Translations under genes and position numbers: made by a program | Source: an uncultured Clostridia bacterium | GTDB taxonomy: Bacteria; Bacillota; Clostridia; Oscillospirales; Acutalibacteraceae | DNA length: 64,000 bases | Direction of reading: 5' to 3' | Assembly (NCBI GenBank): GCA_946186665.1 | Contig: CAMHOE010000002.1 | Span: forward strand, 31,014 to 95,013 | The notes under the pieces: model-generated | Databases searched by the model: none | The model's input: only the letters and a program-made list of their open reading frames with translations | Told to the model about the DNA's origin: nothing | Shown here: in pieces, positions 1 through 18,823 of the stretch | Position numbering within the stretch: position 1 is the first letter of the stretch | Layout of the letters: the number at the start of each line of letters is the position of its first letter

Positions 1-71
1 ATATAAAGCTCACCTACCCATTTGATTTCACCCTTGCTGTAGCGATACTTACATAAATGCGTATAAAAATT

Positions 72-121
72 TGGAATGTGGAATGTGGAAAGTGGAATTA
101 GTTGTGGACTCAAGTCTTGCT
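72..121 (+). repeat. Heptad array H1 (TGGAATG/TGGAAAG, about 4 units) plus conserved flank TTAGTTGTGGACTCAAGTCTTGCT
   Basis: Read directly: tggaatgtggaatgtggaaagtggaat followed by tagttgtggactcaagtcttgct. The same two-part module recurs at 56043-56100. Confidence 0.8.
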
Positions 122-142
122 ATTATCTGCAATATTAAAATG

Positions 143-190
143 AAATGGCTGTATGTTTTTGTACATCGAAAACATACAGCCATTTTTGCA
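143..190. terminator. Bidirectional intrinsic terminator hairpin
   Basis: A perfect 17-nt inverted repeat, aaatggctgtatgtttt / aaaacatacagccattt, with a T-run on the plus side and an A-run on the other side. It lies downstream of the minus-strand GNAT gene. Confidence 0.75.
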
Positions 191-242
191 TAAAAAGTCT
201 CCTGCAAGAGTTTCCTCTTACAGAAGACAGATAGTAAGAATA

Positions 243-704
243 TCAGATATTGCCTTTGTGGATATACATTCTTGTCATATCAGGCTCTCCGTCACCCTGC
301 ACCATGCAGAGAAATTCCCAGCCGTAACGCTCGTAAAACGAGGTGTGGTCGGTAACAAGATATACGGGCGATATCCCCTTGCTTTTCAAATCTCTTACAG
401 CCATGTTCAGAAGCTCTCCTGCGATACCCTGTCTGCGGTATTCTTCCTCAGTATATACGGCGCACACATTCGGGGTAAGGTCCTTTCTGTCATGAAAGTC
501 ATTTTCAATGACACCCAATCCGCCGGTTATCTTTTCTCCGTCAAGGCACAAGTACCAGCCAAGCTCTGTCTCTCCTGCAAGATAAGCATCCATACATTCA
601 AGGTAGGCTTCTGTGGGTACACACCATTTCTGATGGAACCACTCAGCCGCCTTTTCTTTTATTTCAGGCTTCTCACGAAGTGTGATGTATTTATACTTAT
701 TCAT
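243..704 (-). CDS. GNAT family N-acetyltransferase
   Basis: 153 aa ORF with an acetyl-CoA binding-type motif (RRQGIAGELL) and the usual GNAT size. GGGAGGA RBS upstream of the ATG at 704. Confidence 0.8.
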   Translation of the reverse strand: MNKYKYITLREKPEIKEKAAEWFHQKWCVPTEAYLECMDAYLAGETELGWYLCLDGEKITGGLGVIENDFHDRKDLTPNVCAVYTEEEYRRQGIAGELLNMAVRDLKSKGISPVYLVTDHTSFYERYGWEFLCMVQGDGEPDMTRMYIHKGNI

Positions 705-770
705 ATCTTTGTTTCCTCCCTTTGTTAACCTTATTTATTTAAAATGTGTAGTCTACTCCCCCGAAAGGGA

Positions 771-1440
771 AAGCTTCAAGCTAACCACTAACCACTATTT
801 CGTCTTTGAGTACGCTGCGTATACGGCGGGTGACCCCGCAGGACGACTTAACAACGCATCTGCTTTTGTCTGAACCGTCCGCGTCACGCTCTAAAGGAGC
901 GCTTTAGCTACTACTGTACACGTCTCAAAATGCCGAACAGGAACCCTCTGCTGAAATCGGAAGTTTAAACTCTGACCACTTCCCACTAACCGCTAACCAC
1001 TATTTCGTCCTTGAGTACGCTGCGTATACGGCGGGTGACCCCGCAGGACGACTTAACAACGCATCTGCTTTTGTCTGAACCGTCCGCGTCACGCTCTAAA
1101 GGAGCGCTTTAGCTACTACTGTACACGTCTCAAAATGCCGAACAGGAACCCTCTGCTGAAATCGGAAGTTTAAACTCTGACCACTTCCCACTAACCGCTA
1201 ACCACTATTTCGTCCTTGAGTACGCTGCGTATACGGCGGGTGACCCCGCAGGACGACTTAACAACGCATCTGCTTTTGTCTGAACCGTCCGCGTCACGCT
1301 CTAAAGGAGCGCTTTAGCTAATACTGTATACGTCTCAAAATGCCGAACAGGAACCCTCTGCTGAAATCGGAACTTTAAACTCTGACCACTTCTCACTAAC
1401 CACTAACCACTATTTCGTCCTTGAGTACGCTGCGTATACG
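771..1440. repeat. 205-bp tandem repeat, about 3.2 copies. Each unit holds CCACTAA-type heptads, a copy of the last ~37 nt of the crp-family CDS, and the ~125-nt module M10.
   Basis: The anchor ACCACTATTTCGTC occurs at 791, 996, 1201 and 1406. Units differ by about 1-5 mismatches. The last partial unit is the true 3' end of the CDS at 1396-2004. Confidence 0.95.
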
Positions 1441-2004
1441 GCTCAGCGATTCCGGCTTTATCCCAAGATATGTAGCTATATGCTTCTTTGGTACACGTTC
1501 AACAAGCTCGGGATACAGCTTCTTGAAATGAAGATAACGCTCTGTTGCGTTCTCCACAAGAAAGCCGTTTTCTCTGTACATCTTGTACCGCAGACTCTGC
1601 TCCAGCATATTTATCCAGATAGTTTTCAGACCTTCATTTCCCATGATAAAGGCTTTCAGCTCGGAGACATCAAACAGCATTACAACAGTCTCTTCAATAG
1701 TCTCCCACATACATATATGCTCCTTATAGCCCATCATGCCCTCATCCATGCACCAGCCGCCCGGGATACCAAAGCCCCTTGTAATGTCGTTTCCGTCACC
1801 GTCAATGTAATAGCTTCTTACAAGACCGTCAACAACTATACCGGCTGTACCGGCTGTTTCGCCTATACCTGTAACAACGGCGTTTTTGGGATATACCCTG
1901 AACCTTGCCATCTCCACAGCACGACTCAGCACACCTTCCTCAAATCTGACATCGTATTTATCAGCAAGGGCTTTAAGCTGTAAAACTATAGACTCCTTAT
2001 TCAT
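1396..2004 (-). CDS. Crp/Fnr family transcriptional regulator (cNMP-binding domain plus C-terminal HTH)
   Basis: 202 aa with a C-terminal HTH (HIATYLGIKPESLSRIRSVLKDE). The start is 1 nt from the stop of the upstream CPBP gene. The stop TAG and the last residues IVVSG lie inside the heptad repeat. Confidence 0.8.
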   Translation of the reverse strand: MNKESIVLQLKALADKYDVRFEEGVLSRAVEMARFRVYPKNAVVTGIGETAGTAGIVVDGLVRSYYIDGDGNDITRGFGIPGGWCMDEGMMGYKEHICMWETIEETVVMLFDVSELKAFIMGNEGLKTIWINMLEQSLRYKMYRENGFLVENATERYLHFKKLYPELVERVPKKHIATYLGIKPESLSRIRSVLKDEIVVSG

Positions 2005-2005
2005 A

Positions 2006-2728
2006 TCACATCACTCCGTTTACTACAAACGCATAAATTATAGCCGCTAAGTTTGCTCCGCCGTGAGCGATCATTCCCGGCAGAAGGTGATTTGTCTTTT
2101 TGTACGCAAATATCCACACAAGACCTGCCGCAAACGAGAAGCCGAAATTATACCAGTCAAGCATTGCGAACATAAGGTTGAAAAGGAGCAGTGCTTGTGT
2201 CTCACCCATGACCTTGCCGACAAAGCACTTTGCAAGCCCTCTGAAATATATCTCCTTGAAAATGCCGCTTACAAATGCCAGCGCTATAATACTCATAACT
2301 GTAGTGGACAGAGATAGGTCGCTTTGGTTATAAGCCGACATATCTGTACCTCCCAGAGTAATGCCATACGAATAAACAAGGCTGAGAACACACGTAACTG
2401 CAAGCGCACCGATACCAAAAAGAATATCCCTGACAAGAGTTTTCTTCTGCGTTATCTCTTTCATAATGCTTATGTCATTCTTTTTGTAAAGCATTATCGC
2501 TGAGGGCAGAAGTATCATATTTACAAGTATAAGTACAATACAATAGATTACTCTGGGATATGTGGCATAGCTTGCGACGTCAAATACGTTCATGCCCGGT
2601 TTACTGCCGGAATAAGCCATAAACACCTCAAAGCCTGCGACAAAGAACGTCAGTACTGTGGTTATGGTCAATGCCCTCTCTGCGTTCCTGAAATTGGTTT
2701 CTTTTTCTTTGATATTGATTTCTTTCAT
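2006..2728 (-). CDS. CPBP family (CAAX/Abi) intramembrane metalloprotease
   Basis: 240 aa polytopic membrane protein with a KEIYFRG motif (EExxxR-like) and a later conserved-His region (MIAHGGANL). GGAGG RBS. Confidence 0.7.
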   Translation of the reverse strand: MKEINIKEKETNFRNAERALTITTVLTFFVAGFEVFMAYSGSKPGMNVFDVASYATYPRVIYCIVLILVNMILLPSAIMLYKKNDISIMKEITQKKTLVRDILFGIGALAVTCVLSLVYSYGITLGGTDMSAYNQSDLSLSTTVMSIIALAFVSGIFKEIYFRGLAKCFVGKVMGETQALLLFNLMFAMLDWYNFGFSFAAGLVWIFAYKKTNHLLPGMIAHGGANLAAIIYAFVVNGVM

Positions 2729-2800
2729 GTTTATCTACCTCCTGAAATAAGGATACCATTTCAGCAGGCACTTTGCATTGATGTATGTTAAGTGAAGTAA

Positions 2801-2840
2801 TTTTTTTAAAAAAGGACTGAGCATAAGTTCAGTCCTTTTC
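2801..2840 (-). terminator. Intrinsic terminator downstream of the transglutaminase-like gene
   Basis: Hairpin aaaggactga / tcagtccttt, followed by a T-run on the minus strand. Confidence 0.7.
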
Positions 2841-2867
2841 ATCAATGCTAATTACTCTGTTTTGATA

Positions 2868-4229
2868 TCAGCCGTCCTCATACTGATAAGAAAGCTTTAC
2901 TCTCAGTGTTCCTGCCGCTTCATTTTTCAGCACAGAAACGCCGTCTGTTTTTATCTTGTGGTTGTCGTCCAGAGTATCGTTTGCACAATCTATACAGTAG
3001 TAAAACTCGTAGGGTGCTTCATTGAACAGTTTGGTAAAATATTCATTATAGGTCATATCCGTACCAAACCTCAGAGGAACATAAGTCTCTCCCATAAGGG
3101 CTGTCTCTCTTATCTTTGCACTCAGGGTATCTGTGAGCCTTTCATCAAAGCTCTGTACCACAACACCCTCCGCATAATAGTAGTTCATGTCCTTTGATGT
3201 ACACATCGGAACAAAGAAATTGTATCTTATCAGGCTGTTTGCATCCTCTTCCCTGCGTGACTCCGATATCTCCGTTATGCTCTCGGATATGGAATGGTTA
3301 GCGCATATATACTCTGTTGTGACATTGAAATACTCATAGTTTATATTATCATCATTATCGTCCCATGTGGCATCCAGATGATACCATTCTCCGTTCATCT
3401 CCACCACGTTCCACATATGCGCAACACCGTCTGCTTCACCCCTTACGGTACTGCACACGATACCTACCCTTGTCATAAGAAGCTGTATTGCTTTGGAATA
3501 GCCCTCACACACAGCTTCTCCGTCAACGACAGCACCATATGCGGAAAAATACTGCCAGCCGTCAGAGGACGAAGTAACGCCTGTTTTATACGTACAGTTT
3601 GAGATAAGCTTATCATGAATGATTTTTTCCCTCTGATACTCAGTTCTGCCGGAGCCGACTGATGACAAGATCTCATCGACCCTCTGGTTAAAGCGGTCTA
3701 TATAAATTTCACATTCATCAGAGGATATCACAGAATAGAACTCAACTATTGTACAATCATCAACATAAGCATAGCCAAAGATATTTTCCATCCAGAATAT
3801 TTCAGGGTTATCGCTTATATAGGCATTAACGACCTCACGAATATCAAATTCAGAGAGCTTAACGCCGGGTATTCTTATTCTCGAGGTACGATATCTTCCG
3901 TTTGCATCCGGTTCATTAGTAACTCTGTACACACTCCCGTGAATTCGGTCATAGAGATCACGTTTTACATCGGTATCCAGTGCATTATAGCCTGTTTTCA
4001 CTGTAACGAGTCTATAGTTCTCAGCGGAGTAGTTATATACCTCTGTATTTATTTTTTCATACTCAGTCTCTTCTTTACCGTCATCGCTTATTTCTATTGC
4101 TTCTATATCATCATAGACACTGCCCGCCTTATTTGATGTTGTAAAAAAGAGCATAAAACAAGCTATCAAAAGAGTTACTGCAAACCCAAAAAACAACACA
4201 TAGAGTAAATTCGAAACAACCCTTTTCAT
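2868..4229 (-). CDS. Transglutaminase-like (cysteine protease fold) protein with an N-terminal TM anchor
   Basis: Contains a Cys..His..Asp core (CEGYSKAIQLL ... HMWNVVEMNGEWYHLDATWDD). I place the start at ATG 4229 (MKRVVSN), which has a GGGAGGG RBS. The ORF-track start at 4247 lies in a repeat hairpin. Confidence 0.7.
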   Translation of the reverse strand: MKRVVSNLLYVLFFGFAVTLLIACFMLFFTTSNKAGSVYDDIEAIEISDDGKEETEYEKINTEVYNYSAENYRLVTVKTGYNALDTDVKRDLYDRIHGSVYRVTNEPDANGRYRTSRIRIPGVKLSEFDIREVVNAYISDNPEIFWMENIFGYAYVDDCTIVEFYSVISSDECEIYIDRFNQRVDEILSSVGSGRTEYQREKIIHDKLISNCTYKTGVTSSSDGWQYFSAYGAVVDGEAVCEGYSKAIQLLMTRVGIVCSTVRGEADGVAHMWNVVEMNGEWYHLDATWDDNDDNINYEYFNVTTEYICANHSISESITEISESRREEDANSLIRYNFFVPMCTSKDMNYYYAEGVVVQSFDERLTDTLSAKIRETALMGETYVPLRFGTDMTYNEYFTKLFNEAPYEFYYCIDCANDTLDDNHKIKTDGVSVLKNEAAGTLRVKLSYQYEDG

Positions 4230-4241
4230 ACAACCCTCCCG

Positions 4242-4672
4242 GCGCAAGGCTTGCGCTCCCGATTCACGCTATCGTTCGCTTACGCTCACTCTGATATCCA
4301 GACCTCAACTTTTCCTGTCCGCGATTAACGGCGCAGACTTGCCAGACAATATTCCCCACCCGCCGGCGCAGGCTAAGAGCCTGCTGTTTCGGCTGTTTTA
4401 ACCGCACAAATAGTTTTATTCTCCTACTCAACTTTATGCGCCTGCATATCCCAATGTGCAATGTGCAATGTTCAATGAAATAGCTCAAAGCCCAAAGCCT
4501 CCCCTTTAGGGTAAGTGACAGAAATTTACATAGTAAATATTTGCCAGACGGGTTCCATTCAGCGAATGCACTCGCAATTCTTTACAGCACTTGCTATATT
4601 TCGTTTTCGCTAAAGCGAAAACGTACCACAACTATTCACTATTCGTTATTCACTATTCATTATTCACTATTT
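4242..4672 (+). repeat. Full-length mosaic intergenic repeat (archetype). Module order is M1 hairpin-27mer, M2, M3, M4, M5, H3 heptads, M7, M8, H2 heptads.
   Basis: M1 is gcgcaaggcttgcgctcccgattcacg. M4 is ..ccgccggcgcaggctaagagcctgctgtttcggctg. H3 is caatgtgcaatgtgcaatgttcaatg. M8 is ..ttcgttttcgctaaagcgaaaacgtaccacaa. H2 is (ctattca)n. Each module is found again at 6326-6913, 10039-10487, 18566-18818 and 38584-39100, among other sites. Confidence 0.9.
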
Positions 4673-4676
4673 CCGG

Positions 4677-5162
4677 TCACGCACCGCCTGATTTTTTTGT
4701 TCCGGAGTTTTTGTTCTGAAAATTTTTAAGGCTCTGTCTTGTTTTTTTCAGGGCTGCAAGATTTGCGGAAAGCTCATCGTCAGCCTTTTTCATTATGTTG
4801 TCTATATAGCTGTTGGCAGCGTTCCTGATTTTTGCAGCTTCTGCATTTGCTTTGTTGATTATCTCACTTGCCCTCTGCTGAGCCTGCCTTGTGATTTCAT
4901 TATGCTCCACCATAGCTTTGGCTCTTTCCTCTGCCTGCTGAACTATCGTCTCTGCTTCCTGCTTTGACTTTGCTAAAATGTTGCTGCGGTCTGCCGCAAT
5001 ACTCTTTGCCTGTCTTACCTCCTGCGGCATATTGGTGCGCATCTCGTCTACTATCTCCTGTATACGCTCTGCATTGACTACTTTTTTGCCGCCTGAAAGG
5101 GGCATTTTCGCTGAGGTATCGATTATCTCCTGAAGCTCGTCTATCAACATTTCCAGTTTCAT
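4677..5162 (-). CDS. Coiled-coil protein of unknown function (ATPase subunit b/G-like heptad-rich helix)
   Basis: 161 aa, rich in A/E/K/Q and predicted helical. It overlaps the coaD stop by 4 nt, which suggests translational coupling. Confidence 0.5.
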   Translation of the reverse strand: MKLEMLIDELQEIIDTSAKMPLSGGKKVVNAERIQEIVDEMRTNMPQEVRQAKSIAADRSNILAKSKQEAETIVQQAEERAKAMVEHNEITRQAQQRASEIINKANAEAAKIRNAANSYIDNIMKKADDELSANLAALKKTRQSLKNFQNKNSGTKKSGGA

Positions 5163-5653
5163 TTCATATTACTCCTTTGTTTTATTCTCAACAAGATTTC
5201 ATCATGTATACATTCCGGTACAAAAGGCGATACGTCTCCGCCAAGCGCACCCACCTGTTTTACTATACTCGAACTCAGATACATATTATCCGCACTCGTT
5301 GTAAGAAAAACAGTTTCCAGATTGCTGTCCAGCTTTCTGTTGGTCAGTGCCATCTGAAATTCATATTCAAAGTCCGATACGGCACGCAAACCCTTCACAA
5401 TGGCAGAAGCCTTTTTTTGTGCGGCAAAATCCGCAAGCAGACCGCTGAAGCTCATTATCTCTACATTATCTATATCTGCTGTTGCCTTGCGCAGAAAATC
5501 CGTTCTTTCTTCAATTGTAAACCAAGGTTTCTTATCAAGGTTCACAAGAACGGCAACGATAACATGGTCAAAAAGCTTTGATGCTCTTTTTATAATATCG
5601 ATATGCCCTACTGTTACGGGGTCGAAGCTTCCCGGACAGATAGCTGTTCTCAT
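5159..5653 (-). CDS. coaD: Phosphopantetheine adenylyltransferase
   Basis: N-terminus MRTAICPGSFDPVTVGHIDII is the canonical T/HxGH nucleotidyltransferase signature. 164 aa. Confidence 0.95.
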   Translation of the reverse strand: MRTAICPGSFDPVTVGHIDIIKRASKLFDHVIVAVLVNLDKKPWFTIEERTDFLRKATADIDNVEIMSFSGLLADFAAQKKASAIVKGLRAVSDFEYEFQMALTNRKLDSNLETVFLTTSADNMYLSSSIVKQVGALGGDVSPFVPECIHDEILLRIKQRSNMK

Positions 5654-6201
5654 ATACCATCCACTTCCCTTTGCGAATACACGGTTATCATTATCTTACC
5701 GTATTTATAATTTTTCTTGATGACAAAATCTCCTGTCTGTTCAGGAAGCTGTTCATCAAAGGGATGCTCACATATAATTATCCCGCTCCCTTTCATCACC
5801 TTCGGCAGGCGCATAAGAGCAGACTGAAGAAGTCCCGTTTTGTACGGCGGGTCAAGAAAAGCTATATCAAAACGCTGTGAAGTACCTGAAAGATAGCTCA
5901 GGGTATCGCCGTTTCTGACCTCAGCCTTTTCTGCAAGACCTGTTGTCTCCAGATTTTTTCGTACAGCGTCAAGCGAACGTCTGCTGTTATCAATAAAAAC
6001 CGCCTTTTCAGCACCTCTGCTCAATGCTTCTATACCCATCTGACCGGAACCTGCAAAGGCGTCAAGGAACACTCTTCCCTCGACCGAGAACTGTATTATA
6101 CTGAACACTGATTCCTTTACATTATCGGTAGTAGGGCGGACATCATCACCCGAAGGTGTTATCAGCCTGCGTCCCCTTGACGACCCGGTAATCACTCTCA
6201 T
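5650..6201 (-). CDS. rsmD: 16S rRNA (guanine966-N2)-methyltransferase RsmD
   Basis: 183 aa with a DPPY motif, an AGSG SAM-binding motif, and conserved rsmD-coaD synteny. Confidence 0.9.
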   Translation of the reverse strand: MRVITGSSRGRRLITPSGDDVRPTTDNVKESVFSIIQFSVEGRVFLDAFAGSGQMGIEALSRGAEKAVFIDNSRRSLDAVRKNLETTGLAEKAEVRNGDTLSYLSGTSQRFDIAFLDPPYKTGLLQSALMRLPKVMKGSGIIICEHPFDEQLPEQTGDFVIKKNYKYGKIMITVYSQREVDGI

Positions 6202-6254
6202 ACACTCACTGTCCTATCATTCTGATATTCTTACGCTACAATATCACACTATAA

Positions 6255-6282
6255 ATTATAATTTATTACGTCAAAAAGTCAA
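6255..6282 (-). promoter_or_regulatory. Sigma-A type promoter for rsmD-coaD
   Basis: Minus strand reads TTGACT - 16 nt - TATAAT, about 55 nt upstream of the rsmD ATG. Confidence 0.6.
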
Positions 6283-6325
6283 TAGACTTTTTGCATATCA
6301 TTAACAAAAATTAATCCGAATTTTC

Positions 6326-6913
6326 GTCAGGCGGGTAACCCCGCCGGACGACTTAGAACGCATAGACTTTATTAAGAACCGTCCGCGTCACGCACCTAAA
6401 GGTGCGCTTTGGCTACTGCTGTACACGTCTACAACTGCCGAGTGGAACCCCTACGTCAAAGATTTACTATGTAAATTTTTGACACCTCCCCTTTCAGGAG
6501 AGACGGAAATAGTGAATAGTGAATGGTGAATAATGAATAGTGAATAGTTGTGGTGCGTTTTCGCTTAGGCGAAAACGAATTATAGTAAGTATAATATAAA
6601 CTACAACTTCAAACAGTACAGGCGCACATATTTACGGAGGAGGAGAAACTGTCTGCTCGAAGAGTGCAGCCGAAACAGCAGGCTCTTAGCCTGCGCCGGC
6701 GGATGGGGATGAGGGTCTGCCGGTTCCGCGCCGTTAATCGCGGACAGTAAAAGTTTTGGTTATACTAAACAGAGTGAGCTTTAGCGAACGCCAACGCGAA
6801 TCGGGTGCGCAAACCTTGCGCCGCCGTTTATCGCGGACAGGAAAATGTTTGGTCATACTATCAGAGTGAGCTTTAGCGAACGCCAACGCGAATCGGGTGC
6901 GCAGGCTCTGCGC
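6326..6913 (-). repeat. Mosaic intergenic repeat in the opposite orientation to 4242-4672. Plus-strand order is M10, M7, H2, M8, M5, M4, then (M3-M2-M1) x2.
   Basis: The reverse complement of 6666-6715 matches M4 of 4337-4396. H2 here reads gaatagtgaatagtgaatggtgaataatgaatagtgaatag. A 93-bp unit is duplicated (ccgttaatcgcgg at 6731, ccgtttatcgcgg at 6824). The last hairpin abuts the uvrC stop. Confidence 0.9.
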
Positions 6914-6914
6914 T

Positions 6915-8750
6915 TTAACCGTTTTTCCGGTAATGGTTATATACGGACTCTGCCGCAGGTCGGTTCATGCCCTTGACTTGCAGAAGCTCCTCAATATCGG
7001 CTTCTTTTATCCTTGTTATGGTTTTGAAGTAGGAAAGCAGGGCTTTGGCGCGCTCCTCTCCGATACCGTCAATTTCAGTGAGTGATGATGAAAACGCCTT
7101 TTTGCTCCGTGCCTGCCTGTGGTAGCCTATAGCAAATCGGTGTACCTCATCCTGTAGCTTTGATACAAGCGTGAATGCCTGTCTTTTTGATGTTATGGAT
7201 ATCTCATGTCCTTCGTCTGTTATGGCTCGGGTACGGTGCTTGCTGTCCTTTACCATTCCGAACAAGGGTATATCAAGCCCAAAATGTTCAAGCACTGAAC
7301 GCACAGCGGCTACCTGTCCCTTGCCGCCGTCAAGCAGTATCAGGTCGGGAAGCTGTCCGAAGCCATCACCGCTGTCTTTGTTTTTGAAGTATTCTTCAAA
7401 CCGCCTTGTAAGTACCTCGTGCATTGAAGCATAGTCATCCTGCCCCACAAAGCCCTTTATCCTGAAACGCCTGTAGGAGCTTTTGTAGGGTCTGCCGTTT
7501 TTGAACACCACCATACCTGCAACATTTTCCGTTCCCATCAGATTGGAAATATCGTAGGACTCTATAAATACAGGCGGCTTTGAAAGTCCTAAAAGTCCTG
7601 CAAGCTCATCAAGCGCAGAAAGCTCATGACCGTAATGTCCCCTGCTCTGGGCAAGCTTTTCCGCTGCATTCTGCTTTGACATTTCAAGTATCTTCTGCTG
7701 CTCGCCCTTCTGGGGATAATGAAATTTTACTTTTTTACCTCTCAGCTCAGACAGCCTGCCGAGTATAAGTTCTTCGTCTTCGGGAACACCGTCAAGTGTT
7801 ATTATGGGTGGAATGTTCTTCCATATTGAATAGTACTGCATAAGAAACTCTGCCCTTGCCGCTGACAAGTCGGCGTTCTCACCCAAATCTTTTATAACGA
7901 AATCCTCTTTGTCATACAGCCGTCCGCCGTTAAAGCGCAGCACTGCAAAGCAAGCATCAGCACCTTCTGTCATAAGTGAGATAACATCCTGCTCCTCCAC
8001 AGACGCCGCAACGACCTTCTGTTTCTCGGTTATCTTCTTTACAGCATTTATCCTGTCCCTGAGCTTTGCAGCCAATTCAAAATCAAGATTTTCTGCTGCT
8101 GCATTCATTTTTTCGGTCATAAGCTTTATAGAGTCGCTGTCTCCTTTTTTGAGGAAATCCACAGCCGCATTGACTCTTTCGCTGTAGTCTTTAAGTGACA
8201 CTTTACCACTGCACGGAGCGCAGCACTGTTTTATATAGTAGTTAAGGCAAGGGCGCCCTTTTTTGCAGTCTCTGGGAAACACCTTATTGCACGAGGGCAG
8301 CATAAATATTTTCTGTGCTTCATCAACTGCATTTTTTGCATACCATGCGCTCATATAGGGTCCCAGATACTCAGCCCCGTCATCGGACTTCTGCATAACG
8401 AAGCTTAGCTTTCTCCACTGGTCAGCCGACACACGGATATAGCTGTAGCCCTTGTCATCCTTGAGCAGTATATTATACTTCGGCTTATGCTGCTTTATCA
8501 GACTACATTCCAGCACAAGAGCCTCAAATTCACTTGTGCAAAGTATATAATCAAAGTCCCACACATTGGAAACCATCCTCTTTACCTTTTCCTGATGATT
8601 TCTGTCCGAACCGAAATACTGACTCACACGGTTTTTCAGTGCCTTTGCCTTACCTATATATATTATCTCTCCGTCTTTATTCTTCATTATGTAGACTCCC
8701 GGACTAAGCGGGAGTCTCATTGCTTTTTCTCTCAGTTGTTTAATATCCAT
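6915..8750 (-). CDS. uvrC: Excinuclease ABC subunit C
   Basis: 611 aa with an N-terminal GIY-YIG domain (GVYIMKNKDGEIIYIGKA), a UVR domain and a C-terminal HhH. Confidence 0.95.
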   Translation of the reverse strand: MDIKQLREKAMRLPLSPGVYIMKNKDGEIIYIGKAKALKNRVSQYFGSDRNHQEKVKRMVSNVWDFDYILCTSEFEALVLECSLIKQHKPKYNILLKDDKGYSYIRVSADQWRKLSFVMQKSDDGAEYLGPYMSAWYAKNAVDEAQKIFMLPSCNKVFPRDCKKGRPCLNYYIKQCCAPCSGKVSLKDYSERVNAAVDFLKKGDSDSIKLMTEKMNAAAENLDFELAAKLRDRINAVKKITEKQKVVAASVEEQDVISLMTEGADACFAVLRFNGGRLYDKEDFVIKDLGENADLSAARAEFLMQYYSIWKNIPPIITLDGVPEDEELILGRLSELRGKKVKFHYPQKGEQQKILEMSKQNAAEKLAQSRGHYGHELSALDELAGLLGLSKPPVFIESYDISNLMGTENVAGMVVFKNGRPYKSSYRRFRIKGFVGQDDYASMHEVLTRRFEEYFKNKDSGDGFGQLPDLILLDGGKGQVAAVRSVLEHFGLDIPLFGMVKDSKHRTRAITDEGHEISITSKRQAFTLVSKLQDEVHRFAIGYHRQARSKKAFSSSLTEIDGIGEERAKALLSYFKTITRIKEADIEELLQVKGMNRPAAESVYNHYRKNG

Positions 8751-8777
8751 AATTGCCCCCTGAGCGCAGATACAATG

Positions 8778-10016
8778 TCAGTAGTAAATACTCAGTATAC
8801 ATCCGGATGTGCTCACAGAATAGGATATCCCATCATTTATCCGGTCAATATCAAAAACCTTCTGCTCCACAATAAGCTCGTTCATAGCTTCATCCAATAC
8901 CTCCGGCGATGAAAACTTCACCGACAGTCCGCCGTCTGCATAGTACCATTCCGCCGCATCCTGTACATAGCTGAAATCGTAATCTTCAAAATACAAGCCG
9001 TTATATACGTAGTAATTGTACTTTGTTCCTGTTTCATCCGGTACGGGCATAGTGCCGTCTATCGTGTGAGTGTTCTTCATGTCATCATAAGATATCAGAA
9101 AGTATTCATAGGTTTTAGTATTTTCTCCGTCATCCTTTATAGGGTCGTCCCATGTCAGGTCAATAAAGTAGTATTCGCCGTCCACGCATACATAGTTCCA
9201 TTGGTGAGAACCGCTTTCTGACGCTCTTGTGCCGTTCACCTTGCCGCACTCTATGCCAAGCCTGTGCATTATCAGCTGAAAGGCAGTGGAATACCCGGAG
9301 CATATCGCAGTGTTTTCCACAAGACAGCCGTATGCTGTTGAAGCGTTCAGCAAGCCTTCATTCTCTTCCGCTTTGATAAGCGCAAGGGTTTCGGTGTCGT
9401 ATACGGTATTATTTATTATATAGTCGTGAACATAAAGTATCTTTTCATAGGTGTTCTCTTTTGAAGCGGCTTCATTCACTATATCAGATACTATACTCTC
9501 TAATTCCTTCTGAGCCTTGATTATCTCATCGTCATCATCGCTGAACAGTGTTGGAGAAACGGTTATCTCTGATTGTTCGCCGAGTGTTTTCATCTGGTAG
9601 GTAAAGCTTTTTCCAAGCCAGAAATATTCCGGATGGTCGTCAAGCACAGCATAATAGGCAGTCTTTACATCATCCTCAGCTTCATTTTCAAAGACAAATT
9701 CTGTTTCCAGCTCTTCTATCATAACTGTAAAGCGGTTATAGAGTTCCGTTTGTTTTTCGCTGAGGGTATTCTTCAGTGAATACCGATACTCCTGCATAGA
9801 GTCAGAAGACTCAGCCCATGATATTTCAGATTTTTCCTCACTGCTCTCTGCTAAGGGAGCTTCACTGTCTTCCTCAATTCCGGCACTTACAGAATGTTCC
9901 GGTTCTATCGGAGCATCATCTCTGATAAGATGTTCCCAATCCACAGAGCATCCGCCCAGAACACAAGTCGCTGCGACTGCCGCAGCCGTAATCCTTATTC
10001 CATTTTTCACTCTCAC
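8778..10016 (-). CDS. Transglutaminase-like lipoprotein, paralog of 2868-4229
   Basis: Lipobox VLGGC, an acidic linker, and a core CSGYSTAFQLI ... HQWNYVCVDGEYYFIDLTWDD. GTG start with a GGGGGA RBS. Confidence 0.7.
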   Translation of the reverse strand: MRVKNGIRITAAAVAATCVLGGCSVDWEHLIRDDAPIEPEHSVSAGIEEDSEAPLAESSEEKSEISWAESSDSMQEYRYSLKNTLSEKQTELYNRFTVMIEELETEFVFENEAEDDVKTAYYAVLDDHPEYFWLGKSFTYQMKTLGEQSEITVSPTLFSDDDDEIIKAQKELESIVSDIVNEAASKENTYEKILYVHDYIINNTVYDTETLALIKAEENEGLLNASTAYGCLVENTAICSGYSTAFQLIMHRLGIECGKVNGTRASESGSHQWNYVCVDGEYYFIDLTWDDPIKDDGENTKTYEYFLISYDDMKNTHTIDGTMPVPDETGTKYNYYVYNGLYFEDYDFSYVQDAAEWYYADGGLSVKFSSPEVLDEAMNELIVEQKVFDIDRINDGISYSVSTSGCILSIYY

Positions 10017-10038
10017 CCTTATCCCCCTTTCGCCGGCG

Positions 10039-10200
10039 GCGCAGAGCCTGCGCTCCTAATTCGCGGCGCAGAGCCTGCGCTCCCAATTCGCGGCGCAGAG
10101 CCTGCGCTCCCAATTCGCGGCGCAGAGCCTGCGCTCCCAATTCGCAGCGCAGAGCCTGCGCTCCCAATTCGCGGCGCAGAGCCTGCGCTCCCGATTCGCG
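10039..10200 (+). repeat. 27-bp tandem array x6 of module M1 (hairpin GCGCAGAGCCTGCGC plus TCCCAATTCGCG)
   Basis: GCGCAG occurs at 10039, 10066, 10093, 10120, 10147 and 10174. There are no spacers. Confidence 0.95.
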
Positions 10201-10487
10201 TTGCCGTTCGCTGAAGCTCACTCTGATATTCTGACCAAAACTTTTCCTGACCGCGATTGACGGCGCAGACATGACAGATAATCGTTCCCATCCGCCGGCG
10301 CAGCCCTTAGAGGCTGCTGTTTCGGCTGTTTCATCCGTACAAATAGTTTTATTCTCATACTCAACTTTATGCGCCTATACATCGTAAAGCTGTAGTTTAT
10401 TATATTCTTACTATGATTGTTTTCGCCGCAGCGAAAATATACCACTATTATTCATTATTAAGTCTTAAGTTTTCAGTATTCATTAAT
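10201..10487 (+). repeat. Mosaic repeat continuation: M2, M3, M4, M5, promoter-like M8 variant, and an AT-rich H5 tail
   Basis: gttcgctgaagctcactctgatatt ... ccgccggcgcagcccttagaggctgctgtttcggctg ... ctgtagtttattatattcttactatgattgttttcgccgcagcgaaaatataccactattattcattattaagtcttaagttttcagtattcatta. The tail matches 37258-37527. Confidence 0.9.
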
Positions 10488-10490
10488 TTA

Positions 10491-11564
10491 TCACACCAGC
10501 GTTCTTCCTTCGCAGTATTTGCAGAGGAGCATATCGCCGCCGAGAGGTCTGAATATTTTGGGAAGATATGCTTCTGTTGTGGTGATACAGTTTGGGTTGC
10601 AGCATTTTACATTGTGGGTATCGAAGCGTCTGGGCATGGGCTTTTTGTCGGCATTTTCAAGCATTTTCATAATGAGCGCCATTCTTGCGTACATACCGTA
10701 GATGGTCTGGATGAAGTACTTTGCCCTGTCGTCATAGTCTACATCTTCGGTTATCTCATCAACTCTGGGAAGGGGATGAAGTATCTTCATATCGTGTCTT
10801 GCAAGGCGAAGTTTTTCGCTGTCCAGTACAAACACACCCTTCTGTTTTTCGTAATCCTCAGGACTTTTGAAGCGTTCTCTCTGTATTCTTGTCATGTACA
10901 GGACATCAAGCATGGGCAGAGCTTCTGCAAGGCTCGGCACTTCTATATGGCGGCAGCCCGAAGCGTTCATTATATCCTTGATGTACTGCGGAACGGTAAG
11001 CTCCGGTGTAGATATCAGCACAAAAGTATTGCCCTTGAAATGAGACATTGTTTTTATGAGGGAATGTACAGTCCTGCCGTTTTTCAGGTCGCCGCAAAGA
11101 CCAATGCACATATTGTCAAGTGTACCCTTTTCGTTGTAAAGCGTTACAACATCTGTCAATGTCTGTGTGGGATGAAGATGTCCGCCGTCGCCTGCGTTTA
11201 TGACGGGAGCAGCAGAGTACATTGAAGCTGCCTTTGCAGTGCCTTCAAGGGAATGTCTTATTGCTATTATGTCGGCATATCCGCCAACAACAGTCACTGT
11301 ATCTTTAAGACTCTCGCCCTTTGAAACAGAGGAATTCTGCGGATTGTCAAAGCCTATGATACTTCCCCCAAGACGGAGCATGGCAGTCTTGAAGGACATC
11401 TGTGTTCTTGTTGAAGGCTCATAAAAAAGCGTGGCGAGTATCTTTCCCCTGCAAGCCTCTGAATACGCTGAGGGATCGTTCATTATATTATTTGCAAGCT
11501 CTATAATTTCTATAAGCTCCTCTTTTGAAAGACTGTCAAGATCTATTAAATGTTTTGTTTTCAT
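10491..11564 (-). CDS. pyrB: Aspartate carbamoyltransferase catalytic chain with a C-terminal PyrI-type zinc-domain extension
   Basis: Carries STRTQ, HPTQ and HPLPR motifs. The last ~55 aa (KCCNPNCITTTE...LLCKYCE) match the PyrI Zn-binding domain pattern. I place the start at ATG 11564 (MKTKHL), which has a GGGTGAGGA RBS. The ORF-track start is a TTG inside that RBS. Confidence 0.9.
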   Translation of the reverse strand: MKTKHLIDLDSLSKEELIEIIELANNIMNDPSAYSEACRGKILATLFYEPSTRTQMSFKTAMLRLGGSIIGFDNPQNSSVSKGESLKDTVTVVGGYADIIAIRHSLEGTAKAASMYSAAPVINAGDGGHLHPTQTLTDVVTLYNEKGTLDNMCIGLCGDLKNGRTVHSLIKTMSHFKGNTFVLISTPELTVPQYIKDIMNASGCRHIEVPSLAEALPMLDVLYMTRIQRERFKSPEDYEKQKGVFVLDSEKLRLARHDMKILHPLPRVDEITEDVDYDDRAKYFIQTIYGMYARMALIMKMLENADKKPMPRRFDTHNVKCCNPNCITTTEAYLPKIFRPLGGDMLLCKYCEGRTLV

Positions 11565-11579
11565 ATCCTCACCCTTTTT

Positions 11580-11750
11580 CAATGTTCAATGTACAATGTG
11601 CAATGTGCAATTAATAACTTCAAAGCTCAAAGCTTCACTCAGCGAAGAGATCCACAGATCCTATTGCACTTACTATAATTCATTTTTGCTTTAGCAAAAA
11701 TGTACCACAACTATTCGTTATTCACTATTCACTATTCATTATTCACTATT
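11580..11750 (+). repeat. Short mosaic repeat: H3 heptads, M7 fragment, M8 (TATAAT plus hairpin), H2 heptads
   Basis: caatgttcaatgtacaatgtgcaatgtgcaatt ... cttactataattcatttttgctttagcaaaaatgtaccacaa ... (ctattca)n. Confidence 0.9.
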
Positions 11751-11756
11751 ATAATT

Positions 11757-11783
11757 AAAGCCTGTCGGTATACGGCAGGCTTT
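11757..11783 (-). terminator. Hairpin immediately after the ftsZ stop
   Basis: aaagcctgtcggtatacggcaggcttt forms an 11-bp stem with one G-U pair. The downstream U-tract is weak. Confidence 0.5.
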
Positions 11784-11789
11784 AAGAGA

Positions 11790-13103
11790 TTATTTGTTGT
11801 TGAAGATGTCCATTATATCCATGAATGAATCGTCTGAGTCACCGTTATTAACGGCCGGCTTTGCCGGTGCAGGCTTTGTGGAGCTGCTTACGGGAGCCTT
11901 AGTGTTTGCATTGGGGTATACGGGAGCTGCCTGCTGGGGCGGCTCGGGCTGCGGTGCAGGACGATTGTACATTGGCTGCTGATAGGGGTTGTGCTGAGGT
12001 CTGGGCTGTCTCTCAGGCTGAGGCTTGGTTACGGTTCCGAAGCGCGCCGGGTCCGGTCTGGGAGCTACAGCTGTGCCATACTGAAAGGGCGAAGCAGGTT
12101 TCTTCTCATCCTTCTTAGCACCGCCTAAAGCCGGCGGAAAACCGCTGTCTGTTGTGGGGAAGCCTGTAGCGATAACTATTACGCTGATAGCGTCCTCCAT
12201 CTCCTCATCAAGAGCAGCACCCCAGATGATGATAGCGTTCTCGTCTGCCTGCTCGGAAATCATTGTTGAAGCATCCTGTATCTCATCAAGTCCGATATCA
12301 GGAGATGCCTTTATGTTTACGATAAGTCCCTTTGCACCCTGAATAGATGTGCCGAGAAGCGGACTGGATATTGCATTCTGAGCTGCGATCTTTGCCTTGT
12401 CTTTACCGGAAGCAACGCCCACACCCATAAGTGCGTAGCCTGCGTCCTTCATGACGGAGGTAACGTCTGCAAAGTCAAGGTTTACAAGACCGGGTATTAC
12501 GATAAGGTCTGTGATACTCTGAACGCCCTGACGGAGAACATCGTCTGCTGCAAAGAATGCGTTCTGGAGTGTTATCTTCTCATCGCTGATGTGCTTGAGT
12601 CTTTCATTAGGGATAACGATAAGTGAGTCTACGTGCTGCTTGAGCTTCTGGATGCCCTGCTCAGCCTGTTCCATACGGCGCTTGCCCTCGAACAGGAACG
12701 GTGTTGTAACGATACCTACTGTGAGGATACCCATTTCCTTAGCGACCTCTGCAACTACAGGAGCAGCACCTGTGCCGGTACCGCCGCCCATACCTGCGGT
12801 GATAAATACCATATCTGTATCCTGAAGAAGCTCTGCTATTACCTCACGGCTCTCTTCAGCGGCTTTTTCGCCTACTTCCGGCTTAGAGCCTGCGCCCTTG
12901 CCGTGTGTTATCTTTTCGCCTATCTGTACCTTCTGTGTAGCCTTTGAGCGGTTCAGAGCCTGCTTATCGGTGTTGATAGAGATAAACTCCACACCGGTAA
13001 CATACTCCACCATTCGGTCGATAGCGTTTCCGCCGCCGCCGCCGACTCCTACAACCTTAATATGCACTATGCTTTCAACTTCGTTTTCAAATTCGTAAGG
13101 CAT
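11790..13103 (-). CDS. ftsZ: Cell division protein FtsZ
   Basis: GGGTGTG tubulin signature and [10 protein letters not shown], with a long P/Q-rich C-terminal linker. Start at ATG 13103 (MPYEFE), which has a GGAGGGAG RBS. Confidence 0.95.
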
Positions 13104-13317
13104 TTGTTTGACTCCCTCCAAAATTAACATCTGACAGAATTTCTGCTGTCTTACATTCTGACTTGCTTTATTTTTTTACATACAACTACTATTAATTTAC
13201 CACTTTTCCACCGGAATTTCAATACGATAAAGGACTTTTTACACAGATTTATCATTCTTTAGGTAATAAGCCTATATTATAACGTCATTTTTGTTGATTA
13301 TGACAAGGCATAATTAA

Positions 13318-14931: not shown

Positions 14932-14962
14932 TACTTTTCATTCCCTTCACAAAAGCCAGAAC

Positions 14963-15091
14963 TCAATATTCAATGTACAATGTGCAATATTCAATGTTCA
15001 ATCTTTCACTCAAAACACTTACTATAATTCGTTTTAGATTTATCAAAAACGCACAGTCATTCCACATTCCACTTTTCACATTCCACATTTT
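14963..15091 (+). repeat. Short mosaic repeat: H3 heptads, M8 variant (TATAAT), reverse-complement H1 heptads abutting the murG stop
   Basis: tcaatattcaatgtacaatgtgcaatattcaatgttcaatc ... cttactataattcgttttag ... cattccacattccacttttcacattccacatttt. Confidence 0.9.
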
Positions 15092-15093
15092 AA

Positions 15094-16224
15094 TTAAAGG
15101 CTTTTTGCTGCGGAGAGTACCTCGATGATTATGGAGTATATCCTCTTTGAAGCGTCAGATATCGCCATGCGCTTTGCATTTTCGGAATATTCCGCAAGAC
15201 GTATCGGGTCGCTTGCAAGCTTGTCTATCTCTTCGGTAAGCTTCTCCGGTGTAAGATCCTTTTCCTCTATCATGACCGCTGCATTTTCCTTTACAAGTGC
15301 CATTGCATTATGGAACTGGTGATTTTCTGCAACATTCGGCGAAGGGATAAGTATTGAGGGCTTTCCCTTTACCTGTATCTCACTGAGTGTGATAGCTCCT
15401 GCTCTTGCGATGACTACATCTGCCGCCGCAAGACACACGGGCATATCGTTGATGTATTCCCTTATGTCAAGGTTATCTGCCTTTTCAAGGTCGGCTCCCT
15501 TATCCTTAAGAAGCTGAGGAAACCATTTGCCATACTGTCCGTATGCGTGAATGTGCTGATACTTTCCGTCACCTGCGCTTCTTGCGATAACATCAGCTAA
15601 GGCTTCGTTTATCTTTCTTGCGCCAAGACTGCCGCCGAAGGAAAGTATCACGGGTCTGTTGTCAAGTCCCAATTTCTTTCTTGCTTCTTCCTTTTCCTGA
15701 ATGAGTATCTCGCCTCTTACAGGGTTTCCGGTGTCTACAAAGTTGCATTTGCCCTTGAAATGCTCCCTTGCAGCAGGCATTGCAAGCATTACCCTTGTGG
15801 CGTGTTTTGAGAGCATTTTGTTTGTTACTCCGGGATAAGCATTCTGCTCATGTATAAGAGTGGGTATTCCCAGCTTTGCAGCCGCCCTCAGCACGGGGCC
15901 GCTTACATAACCGCCTGTACCGATACATATATCGGGCTTGAACTCCTTTATTATCTTTTTGGAGTCTCTGCCGGCTGACACTGCCTTTTTCACGGTAACG
16001 ATATTATCCTTGAGTGCGCCTAAGGATATCTTTCTCTTAAAGCCCTGCACTGTTATTCCCTTGAATTCAAAGCCTGCCTGCGGCACAAGTCTTTCCTCCA
16101 TGCCGCCTTTAGCTCCGATATAAAGTATCTCAGCATCGGGCTGACGTTCCCTTACATATCCGGCAATGGCAAGAGCAGGATTGATATGACCTGCCGTACC
16201 GCCGCCTGCAAATATTATCCTCAT
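15094..16224 (-). CDS. murG: UDP-N-acetylglucosamine--N-acetylmuramyl-(pentapeptide) pyrophosphoryl-undecaprenol GlcNAc transferase
   Basis: N-terminus MRIIFAGGGTAGHINPALA is the canonical MurG N-terminus. 376 aa, in dcw context. Confidence 0.95.
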   Translation of the reverse strand: MRIIFAGGGTAGHINPALAIAGYVRERQPDAEILYIGAKGGMEERLVPQAGFEFKGITVQGFKRKISLGALKDNIVTVKKAVSAGRDSKKIIKEFKPDICIGTGGYVSGPVLRAAAKLGIPTLIHEQNAYPGVTNKMLSKHATRVMLAMPAAREHFKGKCNFVDTGNPVRGEILIQEKEEARKKLGLDNRPVILSFGGSLGARKINEALADVIARSAGDGKYQHIHAYGQYGKWFPQLLKDKGADLEKADNLDIREYINDMPVCLAAADVVIARAGAITLSEIQVKGKPSILIPSPNVAENHQFHNAMALVKENAAVMIEEKDLTPEKLTEEIDKLASDPIRLAEYSENAKRMAISDASKRIYSIIIEVLSAAKSL

Positions 16225-16237
16225 AACAAAACACCCC

Positions 16238-17485: not shown

Positions 17486-17527
17486 TTAATGACACTTCCT
17501 TTCTTGATGAAATGGTCATAGAATCCG

Positions 17528-18553: not shown

Positions 18554-18565
18554 ATCAACAACTCC

Positions 18566-18818: not shown

Positions 18819-18823
18819 AAGTT

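Follow-up and report, generated by a model that had tools for sequence, protein, structure and literature searches.

The intergenic gaps of the DNA analysed here, a 64,000-nucleotide (64-kb) stretch from an uncultured Clostridia bacterium of the Acutalibacteraceae (contig CAMHOE010000002.1, positions 31,014 to 95,013; referred to as the window, with positions counted from its first nucleotide), hold repeated DNA that falls into three classes: A elements (modules M1-M5), B elements (module M10) and heptad-armed units (cores M7, M8 and M9 between arrays of 7-nt repeats). Combining the repeat maps with structure predictions and a comparison to syntenic loci of sister species, we suggest that these are non-coding, non-autonomous repeats that were gained after the split from the sequenced sisters, that resemble the repetitive extragenic palindromic (REP), BOX and short tandemly repeated repetitive (STRR) sequences of other bacteria, and that are tolerated where they lie, a reading to which we assign a probability of roughly 55%.

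In a self-BLASTN of the window, repeated DNA is almost confined to intergenic gaps (65-121, 781-1442, 4240-4675, 6330-6914, 10036-10485, 11579-11750, 14963-15093, 18570-18774, 23376-23415, 25514-25638, 29109-29148, 33289-33316, 37259-37527, 38584-39099, 43001-43337 and 56038-56100). Tandem Repeats Finder (TRF) reports 29 period-7 arrays, nearly all intergenic, and, beyond these heptads, tandem units of 27, 33, 92 and 205 nt, while M1-M5, M7, M8, M9 and M10 were mapped by a Hamming scan using the module consensus sequences of a preliminary description of this DNA. The window has seven copies of M2 and five of the M4 core, and neither pattern occurred in 100 shuffles, so that chance recurrence is excluded. 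Repeats account for 3704 of 9640 intergenic nt (38%) versus 1.6% of coding bases, and the coding signal mostly stems from an unrelated coding tandem repeat and a paralogous signal peptidase pair. Conservative detection places repeats in 15 of the 41 gaps of at least 20 nt (approximately 18 by eye); each gap has its own combination of modules, and the copies have diverged (70-98% identity).

The recurrence of modules at the positions given in the preliminary description is borne out by self-BLASTN, TRF, pattern counts and the Hamming scan, and its archetype copy at 4242-4672 is built as it had stated (M1-M5, (CAATGTG)n, M7, the M8 hairpin and (ACTATTC)n). That repeats fill most gaps was an overstatement in view of the counts above, the total of approximately 4.8 kb has to be lowered to about 3.7-4.5 kb, and the single family envisaged there resolves into at least three classes with differing distributions. 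A short hairpin had been ascribed to nearly every module; the mosaic is indeed hairpin-rich, but no hairpin forms within M2, M3 or M5, which instead join long-range pairings. Similarly, in the copy reported at 23280-23435 the clear part comprises only two M1 units (23378-23431, - strand, Hamming scan) inside the 3' end of the rsmH open reading frame (ORF). The formal resemblance to BOX and to REP sequences and their bacterial interspersed mosaic elements (BIME) is supported and extends to the Neisseria intergenic mosaic elements (NIME). Moreover, the modules match no Rfam family: the only hits of a search of the window against Rfam 15 are two tRNAs, both at the gathering threshold and at E<=1. 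Both conserved operons said to be invaded, dcw and fab, were confirmed, and the window lacks a transposase as had been claimed; Pfam/NCBIfam searches with all 59 long ORFs return housekeeping families only, with no transposase, integrase or reverse transcriptase encoded.

The A element is approximately 210 nt long and consists of one to six M1 units followed by M2-M3 and then by either M4-M5 (long type) or a terminator-like end (short type). The M1 unit (27 nt) combines a 15-nt palindrome, the hairpin GCGCAG-AGC-CTGCGC, with the tail TCCCGATTCGCG and is found once, twice or six times in tandem. RNAalifold applied to seven long A copies from three genomes predicts four helices: the hairpins of M1 and M4 form P1 and P4, a helix between the M1 tail and M3, with M2 inside it, forms P2, and M5 pairs with the end of M3 in P3. 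Compensatory pairs are present in P1, P3 and P4. Among 13 distinct M1 units with approximately 10 different stems, all six stem pairs have compensatory changes and 97% of cells are paired, which none of 500 shuffles matches; most of these units came from a finder that requires a perfect stem, and an M2-anchored list free of that selection has the same stems. The element folds alike on both strands (-32.7 versus -37.7 kcal/mol), and for that reason an assignment of the active strand was dropped. Short-type elements close with CCGCCCA...TGGGCGG followed by TTTT; the stem encloses approximately 23 nt, its z-scores are weak, it is not significant compared with shuffles and a consensus terminator scan does not call it.

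The B element (approximately 125 nt) has a leading hairpin unit, a GGACG/CGTCC helix around a variable spacer and a second hairpin, with 96.8% of cells paired and four compensatory pairs, two per hairpin. Its hairpin unit is GCGGG-TGAC-CCCGC or GTGCG-TGAC-CGCAC followed by GGACGACTTA..AACGCA, is also found in tandem (33 nt, x2, at 43271-43337) and is clearly related to GGTGCGTGACCGCACAGGACAATTCGCG, the head unit of the A elements in the rumen metagenome-assembled genome (MAG) RUG13152; thus, A and B share a head-unit family. A and B elements face each other at 6330-6914, 38583-39099 and 42999-43337, with hairpin units at both outer ends.

In heptad-armed units, two inverted arrays of 7-nt repeats, ordered 5'-(..GTG..)n ... 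(..CAC..)n-3', flank a core that holds one to three small hairpins (M7, M8, M9). All heptads in the window are variants of the two themes ATGTGNN and TAGTGNN, and stop codons occur in each of the three frames of TAGTGNN arms. Nine copies retain the M8 hairpin, with four compensatory pairs; eight of the nine are on the + strand, and in seven the array adjoining M8 reaches the stop codon of the neighbouring gene. In two of four predicted folds of armed units the arms pair (z -3.6 and -5.9), and the other two folds are not significant. In all, hairpins are preserved by compensatory substitutions. The TATAAT of M8 was considered as a portable promoter and not adopted; there is no conserved -35 box, and only 11651-11679 passes a consensus scan.

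The preliminary description had proposed a comparison with sister genomes, and this comparison reveals short, repeat-free gaps at the orthologous positions. It covers four syntenic dcw loci (L026 and L030-L032) with MurG proteins 87-89% identical to that of the window, the closest found, from rumen or gut MAGs labelled Acutalibacteraceae, Ruminococcus or Clostridia. The window is about 74% identical to L026 at the nucleotide level and colinear with it in gene order across 4.7-27 kb, and L030-L032 have the same order over the parts covered. BLAST detects no module in any of the four loci, the A-element covariance model R1 has no convincing match in them (best, 19.7 bits), and heptad arrays are essentially absent apart from one coding-region period-7 repeat in L032; likewise, approximately 250 kb of related loci contain essentially no heptad arrays. 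The gaps themselves measure 17-45 nt in the sisters versus 162 nt in the window between murG and ftsQ, 63-72 versus 207 nt between ftsZ and pyrB, 101-221 versus 713 nt between uvrC and rsmD, and 72-90 versus 429 nt between the last gene and the transglutaminase gene. Because the sister loci lack the modules and have far shorter gaps, we conclude that the repeats were gained in the lineage of the window. Two observations on the sister loci may be added. A lone GCGCAGAGCCTGCGC hairpin in L026 (14302-14373), just upstream of the pyrB ribosome-binding site (RBS), is identical to the M1 stem-loop but lacks the tail and may be a relic or seed of an M1 unit. In L032 the pyrB-transglutaminase gap (15281-15697) is 417 nt long and has none of the window modules.

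The repeats are placed between a stop codon and an RBS or native promoter, and native signals persist beside the inserts (the ftsZ terminator, the rsmD promoter and RBSs). Upstream of rsmD-coaD, a near-consensus promoter, TTGACT-16-TATAAT (6282-6255, - strand), lies in a region conserved in three sister loci, and the repeat mosaic is wholly upstream of it. A simple terminator scan of positions 1-20000 (the dcw region) finds no intrinsic terminator inside modules on the gene strand. At three genes, the repeats run into the extreme 3' end: two M1 units encode a 21-aa C-terminal tail of RsmH that is absent from the sister species, the A element at 42999-43130 supplies the last 23 codons and the stop codon of a MiaB-like gene (41523-43070), and the stop codon of a crp-like gene is a TAG within a heptad. 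The repeats are probably co-transcribed and tolerated.

Local growth by tandem duplication is evident from the units of 27, 33, 92 and 205 nt. A and B elements each start with a 27-33-nt hairpin-plus-tail unit that amplifies in tandem, and their conserved body is predicted to fold back on the tail, which makes each a compact multi-helix structure of about 125-210 nt. We suggest that copies of the repeats would be seeded at new gaps in trans by a factor for which the gene lies in another part of the genome. The likeliest factor would be a hairpin-recognising single-strand DNA enzyme of the HUH/Y1 type, i.e. similar to REP-associated tyrosine transposases (RAYT) or IS200. Alternatively, the repeats could spread by recombination between heptad arrays. 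Subsequently, seeded copies would expand locally via slippage and unequal crossing-over, and they would persist through near-neutrality in that they would be co-transcribed in operon mRNAs, fold on themselves and present, in the gene-end arm, stops in three frames; an effect on mRNA processing or stability, if any, would be secondary. Speculatively, TAGTGNN arms might be bound by a HutP-like protein recognising (UAG-N4)n. Integron attC sites and the iterons of HUH replication origins were set aside as explanations, given the housekeeping operons and the lack of a Rep gene.

Several points weigh against this reading. B elements and M7, M8 and M9 are recorded only within the 64-kb window, and their dispersal is documented only there; the relatives compared are different species and not close strains. 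Inspection of the element ends reveals neither a target-site duplication nor a classical terminal inverted repeat, the window has no RAYT/IS200-like gene, and a weak tblastn search with an IS608 TnpA query returns nothing below E=2 in approximately 170 kb from 25 related MAG loci. Finally, there is a strong orientation bias toward the + strand (M8, eight of nine copies; A, five of seven), and together with the compensation in the four-helix structure this bias suggests selection on structure or strand, which fits a functional role as RNA or single-stranded DNA no less than it fits selfish DNA.

The likeliest alternative is that selection maintains the units as cis-acting RNA elements of polycistronic mRNAs, in which the inverted arms, together with the hairpins of the core, would fold into long intercistronic stem-loops; they could act as RNase III-type processing sites, as 3'-end stabilisers or by placing a stop codon beside the next RBS, and short-type A elements could be intrinsic terminators. 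The units do lie precisely between the stop codon and RBS of co-oriented genes, in the window as well as in phage structural operons, arms pair in two of the four predicted folds, hairpins are maintained via compensatory change, short-type A elements end in a stem and then a U-run, and the order of heptad arrays described below is identical on either transcribed strand. However, the same essential operons run without such units in the sister species, the A element is found in both orientations with respect to transcription and folds equally well on both strands, two of the four armed units folded have no significant fold, and the terminator-like stems are neither significant versus shuffles nor called by the consensus scan. 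On balance, we regard a selected RNA element as unlikely.

Alternatively, the A element, and perhaps B, could be a multi-copy gene for a small RNA or riboregulator that is itself transcribed from M1 to M5 or to the terminator-like end. Its conserved four-helix architecture with covariation points in this direction, as do the terminator-like stem and U-run that end short-type copies in the M1-to-M3 direction and the common orientation, antisense to the flanking genes, of five of the seven A copies in the window. But there is no conserved promoter upstream of M1, which often adjoins a stop codon or RBS, the folding energies given above show no strand preference, truncation, tandem duplication and fusion into ORF ends are seen among the copies, and Rfam has no match; an RNA gene in multiple copies is quite improbable in our opinion.

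Outside the window, relatives of the A element appear to be restricted to a few other rumen MAGs. An exact-pattern scan for M2 in 185,579 species genomes gave approximately 20 loci in the rumen MAGs RUG13152 (approximately 17) and RUG11818 (three) and one further relative in an Acutalibacteraceae MAG; the other matches, three of them in Bradyrhizobium and others in, for instance, a Lachnospiraceae MAG in which only M2 matches, look like chance. The A elements of the rumen MAGs are intergenic, in both orientations and often tandem, with the M1 end often adjoining a stop codon or RBS; M1-M3 tandem units of 82-92 nt are found in RUG13152 and, in the window, at 6729-6903. B elements, M7-M9 and heptads were not found in the rumen-MAG loci fetched, and B and M7-M9 were not searched in the reference-genome collection; a B-element scan of metagenome contigs of the Joint Genome Institute (JGI) gave three chance matches only, in contigs of 63% GC, and an M2 scan of viral contigs found nothing.

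The heptads are distributed differently. In IMG/VR contigs, exact (CACTAAC)3 strings are present in 40 stretches and (ACTATTC)3-like strings in 34, with a chance estimate of approximately 0.05. The contigs are genuine phages or prophages with terminase, capsid, tape-measure and integrase genes, range from 30 to 70% GC, have nothing but the heptads in common with the window and hold numerous related arrays, with which the spaces between stop codon and RBS are filled. From these sequence matches, the heptad arrays appear to belong to a cross-phylum phenomenon that includes phages. Megablast of two heptad-rich phage contigs versus known phages gave no match. Paired arrays of the TAGTGG/CCACTA type lie in phage structural operons, for example at L060 1113-1275, L072 4971-5141 and L065 3260-3460 (among the contigs L036-L112), contigs of low GC (30-34%) have (TGAATAG)n arrays, and L102 (IMGVR_UViG_GVMAG-M-3300020165-47_000001), labelled a giant-virus MAG, has an (ATAGTGA)n array at 4337-4362.

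Adjacent arrays in the phages follow the polarity 5'-(..GTG..)n (..CAC..)n-3' in 21 of 22 classified pairs after de-duplication (p about 1e-5), and 14 of 15 contig clusters are GTG-first. In the window, a script classified four pairs as GTG-first and none as CAC-first, and inspection by eye adds one to two GTG-first pairs and one exception (18569 / 18760). GTG-first polarity is the same on both strands and, therefore, is a property of the duplex and not of gene orientation. Because the polarity is near-invariant and the same four heptads were seeded de novo at many gaps, we considered that the arrays might not be slippage noise and might reflect a dedicated, directional, horizontally spread mechanism common to distant bacteria and phages, a proposal that we rate as doubtful. 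Candidates would be a DNA enzyme that is heptad-specific or adds repeats to 3' ends, or a mobile element with heptad arrays as its termini, and the mosaic between the arms would have been captured or copied in the process.

A related possibility is that the arrays are scars of a directional process at DNA ends, in which G/T-rich heptads are added to the 3' ends on both sides of a break or insertion site and these ends are subsequently ligated, much as in head-to-head telomere fusions, sometimes with the capture of copied filler modules. Such addition and joining would account for the fixed polarity as well as for the shuffled mosaic. The polarity counts in phages and in the window, with its single by-eye exception, agree with this scenario, and so do the de novo seeding of arrays, which occupy many gaps that relatives have empty, and the core modules being shuffled, truncated and in both orientations. 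On the other hand, no enzyme with such activity was identified in the window, and we know of none that adds heptads directionally; a fixed polarity would also be expected from a transposon with heptad-array ends or from selection for RNA hairpins; and the arms often differ (ATGTGCA versus TAGTGAA), whereas simple two-sided addition of one repeat predicts otherwise. We regard this scenario as very doubtful. Lastly, although this is an assembly of an uncultured organism whose closest relatives are MAGs, and repeats are known to cause misassembly, chimeric or inflated gaps created by metagenome repeats are hardly credible given the colinearity with all four sister loci, the gap-specific module combinations with diverged instead of collapsed identical copies, and the related elements in independent assemblies.

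By analogy, the mosaic appears to work like BOX, like REP/BIME/NIME and like the cyanobacterial mosaics of STRR and small dispersed repeats (SDR), i.e. it is dense intergenic repeat DNA of a recognisable kind that is apparently new for this bacterial group. BOX of Streptococcus pneumoniae has the organisation boxA-(boxB)n-boxC. Both systems are modular intergenic Firmicute repeats of approximately 100-300 nt whose ends fold together and that have no transposase of their own, and both have a variable tandem sub-unit, here M1 (x1, x2, x6) and the M1-M3 units of 82-92 nt. In contrast to BOX, with its variable unit in the middle, the variable unit here is at one end, there are two alternative 3' halves (M4-M5 or terminator-like), and the host is a rumen Acutalibacteraceae/Ruminococcus-like bacterium; the comparison with BOX is one of architecture. 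Of the bcr repeats, some resemble miniature inverted-repeat transposable elements (MITE), have a predicted RNA structure with compensatory changes, and some are transcribed. The families bcr1-bcr18 of the Bacillus cereus group, likened here by description, are similarly intergenic Firmicute repeats (100-400 nt), but several of them have a defined target-site duplication, of which none was seen here. As to MITEs, inspection found no terminal inverted repeat or duplication at the ends of A or B elements, and heptad-armed units have inverted arms but no flanking duplication.

Cyanobacterial STRR heptanucleotide arrays reportedly contain nested small dispersed repeats, in accounts attributed to Mazel (1990) and Elhai (2008). 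Both systems have intergenic tandem heptamers that are present in one lineage and absent from relatives, with nested hairpin-bearing dispersed repeats, so that insertions lie within insertions; phylum and module sequences differ. In keeping with heptanucleotide LSSR/STRR-type repeats, the window has 7-nt tandems of at least three copies that are intergenic, abundant in the lineage and lacking in relatives. PMC4679880 and PMC4692102 describe intergenic heptamers without assigned function in Nostoc, Calothrix, Xanthomonas, Beggiatoaceae and some Bacteroidetes, including TAACTGA repeats in Beggiatoaceae, Cyanobacteria and Bacteroidetes (PMC4679880) and GGGAATC/GGGGATT repeats in Xanthomonas and Nostoc, with Calothrix heptamers mentioned (PMC4692102). 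These LSSRs are like the arrays here in having 7-nt units in 2 to >20 copies, approximately 90% of them intergenic, with a patchy phylogenetic distribution and a location near gene ends, in many cases directly before a start codon and between genes of the same orientation, and some are paired inverted arrays. The arrays here differ in having TAGTGNN/ATGTGNN units, usually as two inverted arms around hairpin cores and interleaved with larger elements, and the portions of the two papers that were read make no mention of a GTG-first polarity.

With REP/BIME and NIME the repeats share extragenic palindromes with compensatory change that are clustered into mosaics with other motifs (PMC3116915, PMC3733652), are mostly downstream of genes and occasionally in gene ends, and are tandemly amplified. 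The Neisseria dRS3/NIME arrays consist of diverse modules separated by a short repeat (PMC3116915, PMC3733652), and here heptad arrays separate modules. The CGTC-tagged REPs have a CGTC (or TGTC/CCTC) tag, a stem of 8-9 bp, a loop of 4-5 nt and a CCA-like tail (PMC3733652). B units alone are loosely similar, reading CGTC-C-TGCGGGGTCACCCGC or CGTC-CA-GTGCGGTCACGCAC on the reverse strand with a 4-nt loop, and the RUG13152 units read TGTC-CT-GTGCGGTCACGCAC, a tag variation of the kind described in PMC3733652, a survey of REPs in which Firmicutes and Clostridia are nowhere mentioned. However, B stems have 5-6 bp and lack A/T first positions, and M1 units have no tag. Different from GTAG-type REPs, no GTAG lies beside any stem, and M1 is a palindrome plus tail; different from REPINs, M1 and B units are arranged head-to-tail and not as inverted dimers, with only the A...B composites placing unlike units inverted; and different from REPs in general, the units here head longer elements of 125-210 nt and no RAYT is encoded in the 64-kb window.

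We found no description in the literature of such mosaics in rumen Clostridia. Dense mosaics of hairpin repeats and heptad arrays are known from Proteobacteria, Neisseria, pneumococci and cyanobacteria. Many gaps in essential operons (dcw, fab, pyrB) have been roughly doubled or tripled with gene order not visibly disrupted, and the lineage provides a natural test of the tolerance of polycistronic operons for inserted non-coding DNA. Within the narrow clade of uncultured rumen bacteria that they mark, the elements could be used as strain markers; they are also a hazard for assembly and annotation, where gene callers could misannotate spurious ORFs and false C-terminal tails. The fixed heptad polarity in phage operons is the most unexpected by-product of the repeat analysis and a testable regularity for the old question of why heptamers accumulate in intergenic regions.

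Model R1 detects seven A copies in the window. The long-type element at 4242-4450 (+; M1, M2, M3, M4 hairpin, M5; 93 bits with R1) has its M1 end at the RBS and start of a transglutaminase-like gene (2868-4247, -). On the - strand, 6608-6914 holds a reversed long-type element (6608-6821) in which M1-M2-M3 is duplicated (92-nt unit x1.9, in tandem at 6729-6903) and the M1 end adjoins the uvrC stop codon. At 10036-10383 (+; 103 bits), six tandem 27-nt M1 units are followed by M2-M5, the long-type element proper being 10174-10383, and the M1 end adjoins the RBS of the gene at 8778-10016 (-); the units at 10036-10200 are contiguous 27-mers without spacers, and on this ground a CRISPR array was rejected. 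Two A elements followed by (CAATGTA)n occupy 38583-38971 (+; TRF, Hamming scan, R1), the first of which breaks off within M4, where two M1 units are attached, and the second of which (38739-38945) is full length. The short-type element at 42999-43130 (+; Hamming scan, R1) consists of M1-M2-M3, the stem CCGCCCA..TGGGCGG and a T-run. Spurious ORFs of 146 and 90 aa run through A elements (38574-39014, +, and 10019-10291, -), and translated A-element ORFs have no homologues among 5.8 billion proteins.

B elements within (CACTAAC) heptads form a 205-nt unit repeated x3.2 in tandem at 98% identity (781-1442, +; TRF), and the last heptads provide the stop codon of the ORF at 1396-2004 (-). Further B elements form the left end of the composite 6330-6914 (6330-6441, +; Hamming scan) and, facing A elements, the right end of the composite 38583-39099 (39010-39099, -; Hamming scan), and a B element with two extra 33-nt hairpin units in tandem lies at 43146-43337 (-; TRF, Hamming scan). 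In the shuffled mosaic at 18569-18818 (+; Hamming scan), heptads and a B hairpin unit (-) precede M4-M5 of an A element, after which come further heptads and a remnant of M8a.

The armed unit of the archetype (4452-4671, +) begins with a left arm of the GTG type, (CAATGTG)3.7 (4452-4477; TRF), continues with core M7 (4483-4540; Hamming scan), i.e. GCTCAAAGCCCAAAGC, a small hairpin and the palindrome ATTTACATAGTAAAT, and with core M8 (4590-4632; z -4.7), i.e. CTTGCTATATTT, the hairpin CGTTTTCGC-TAAA-GCGAAAACG and then TACCACAAC, and ends with a right arm of the CAC type, (ACTATTC)5.9 (4631-4671), 5 nt from the stop codon of the gene at 4677-5162 (-). The other units on the + strand with both arms are (CAATGTG)n, an M7a-like part, M8 and (ACTATTC)n between the ftsZ terminator and the pyrB RBS (11580-11750); (TCAATGT)n, M8 and (CATTCCA)n, which fill the murG-ftsQ gap (14963-15089); (AATGTGG)n and (CACTAAT)n on either side of a core made up of M7a plus a hairpin (29118-29237), the arms of which pair in the fold with z -3.6; a unit with three internal hairpins (33172-33310), the arms of which pair in the fold with z -5.9; and (GTGGAAA)n, an M9 core and (ACTAACC)9.4 (56050-56231; TRF, Hamming scan). 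A half armed unit, (AATGTGG)4.4 and an M9 core, is found at 65-121 (+; self-BLASTN, TRF, Hamming scan). In reversed orientation, 6462-6589 (-; TRF, Hamming scan) has the M7 palindrome, an (AATAGTG)5.9 array and M8. M8 with a degenerate heptad arm ends at the pyrB stop codon at 10404-10482 (+) and adjoins the fabH stop codon at 37447-37527 (+), 25446-25631 (+) holds an M7b-like palindrome, M8 and an (ACTATTC)9.9 array that overlaps the mnmA stop codon, a single arm (GTTAGTR)n lies directly upstream of the RBS of a SpoU methylase gene (29754-29785, +), and a diverged M8-like hairpin plus CACATTCCACATT (57735-57806, +) adjoins the stop codon of the gene at 57807-58373.

The genes of the window (44.5% GC) are a housekeeping set of a sporulating Firmicute, with mraZ-rsmH-ftsL-spoVD-mraY-ftsW-murG-ftsQ-ftsZ, pyrB and uvrC, the fatty-acid genes accABCD-fabZ-fabF-fabG-fabD-fabH, and clpXP, tig, rplS and others in addition to a dockerin protein. 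GC skew marks the gene-rich minus strand as the leading strand. The dockerin protein (529 aa; 59106-60695, -), with its C-terminal type I dockerin, points to a cellulosome-type fibre-degrading rumen organism. An extra ORF of 140 aa (22706-23128, -) lies between rsmH and the ftsL-like gene, in a gap of 731 nt versus approximately 100 nt in L026; its product is of low complexity with an acidic, D/E-rich C-terminus, and it may represent either a genuine small gene or a piece of inserted DNA. A small transposase was rejected for this ORF because of the acidic low-complexity sequence and the lack of a Pfam match. The coding self-match 56247-56410 / 56930-57093 is explained by tandem paralogous signal peptidase I genes (56238-56888 and 56921-57625). 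Finally, the ftsQ-like ORF (13318-14931) has an internal 36-nt tandem repeat (13418-13653, x6.6, 90% identical) that has no relation to the intergenic modules; when translated, it gives a repeat of 12 residues, and it lengthens the protein to 537 aa versus 484-516 aa in the sister orthologues.

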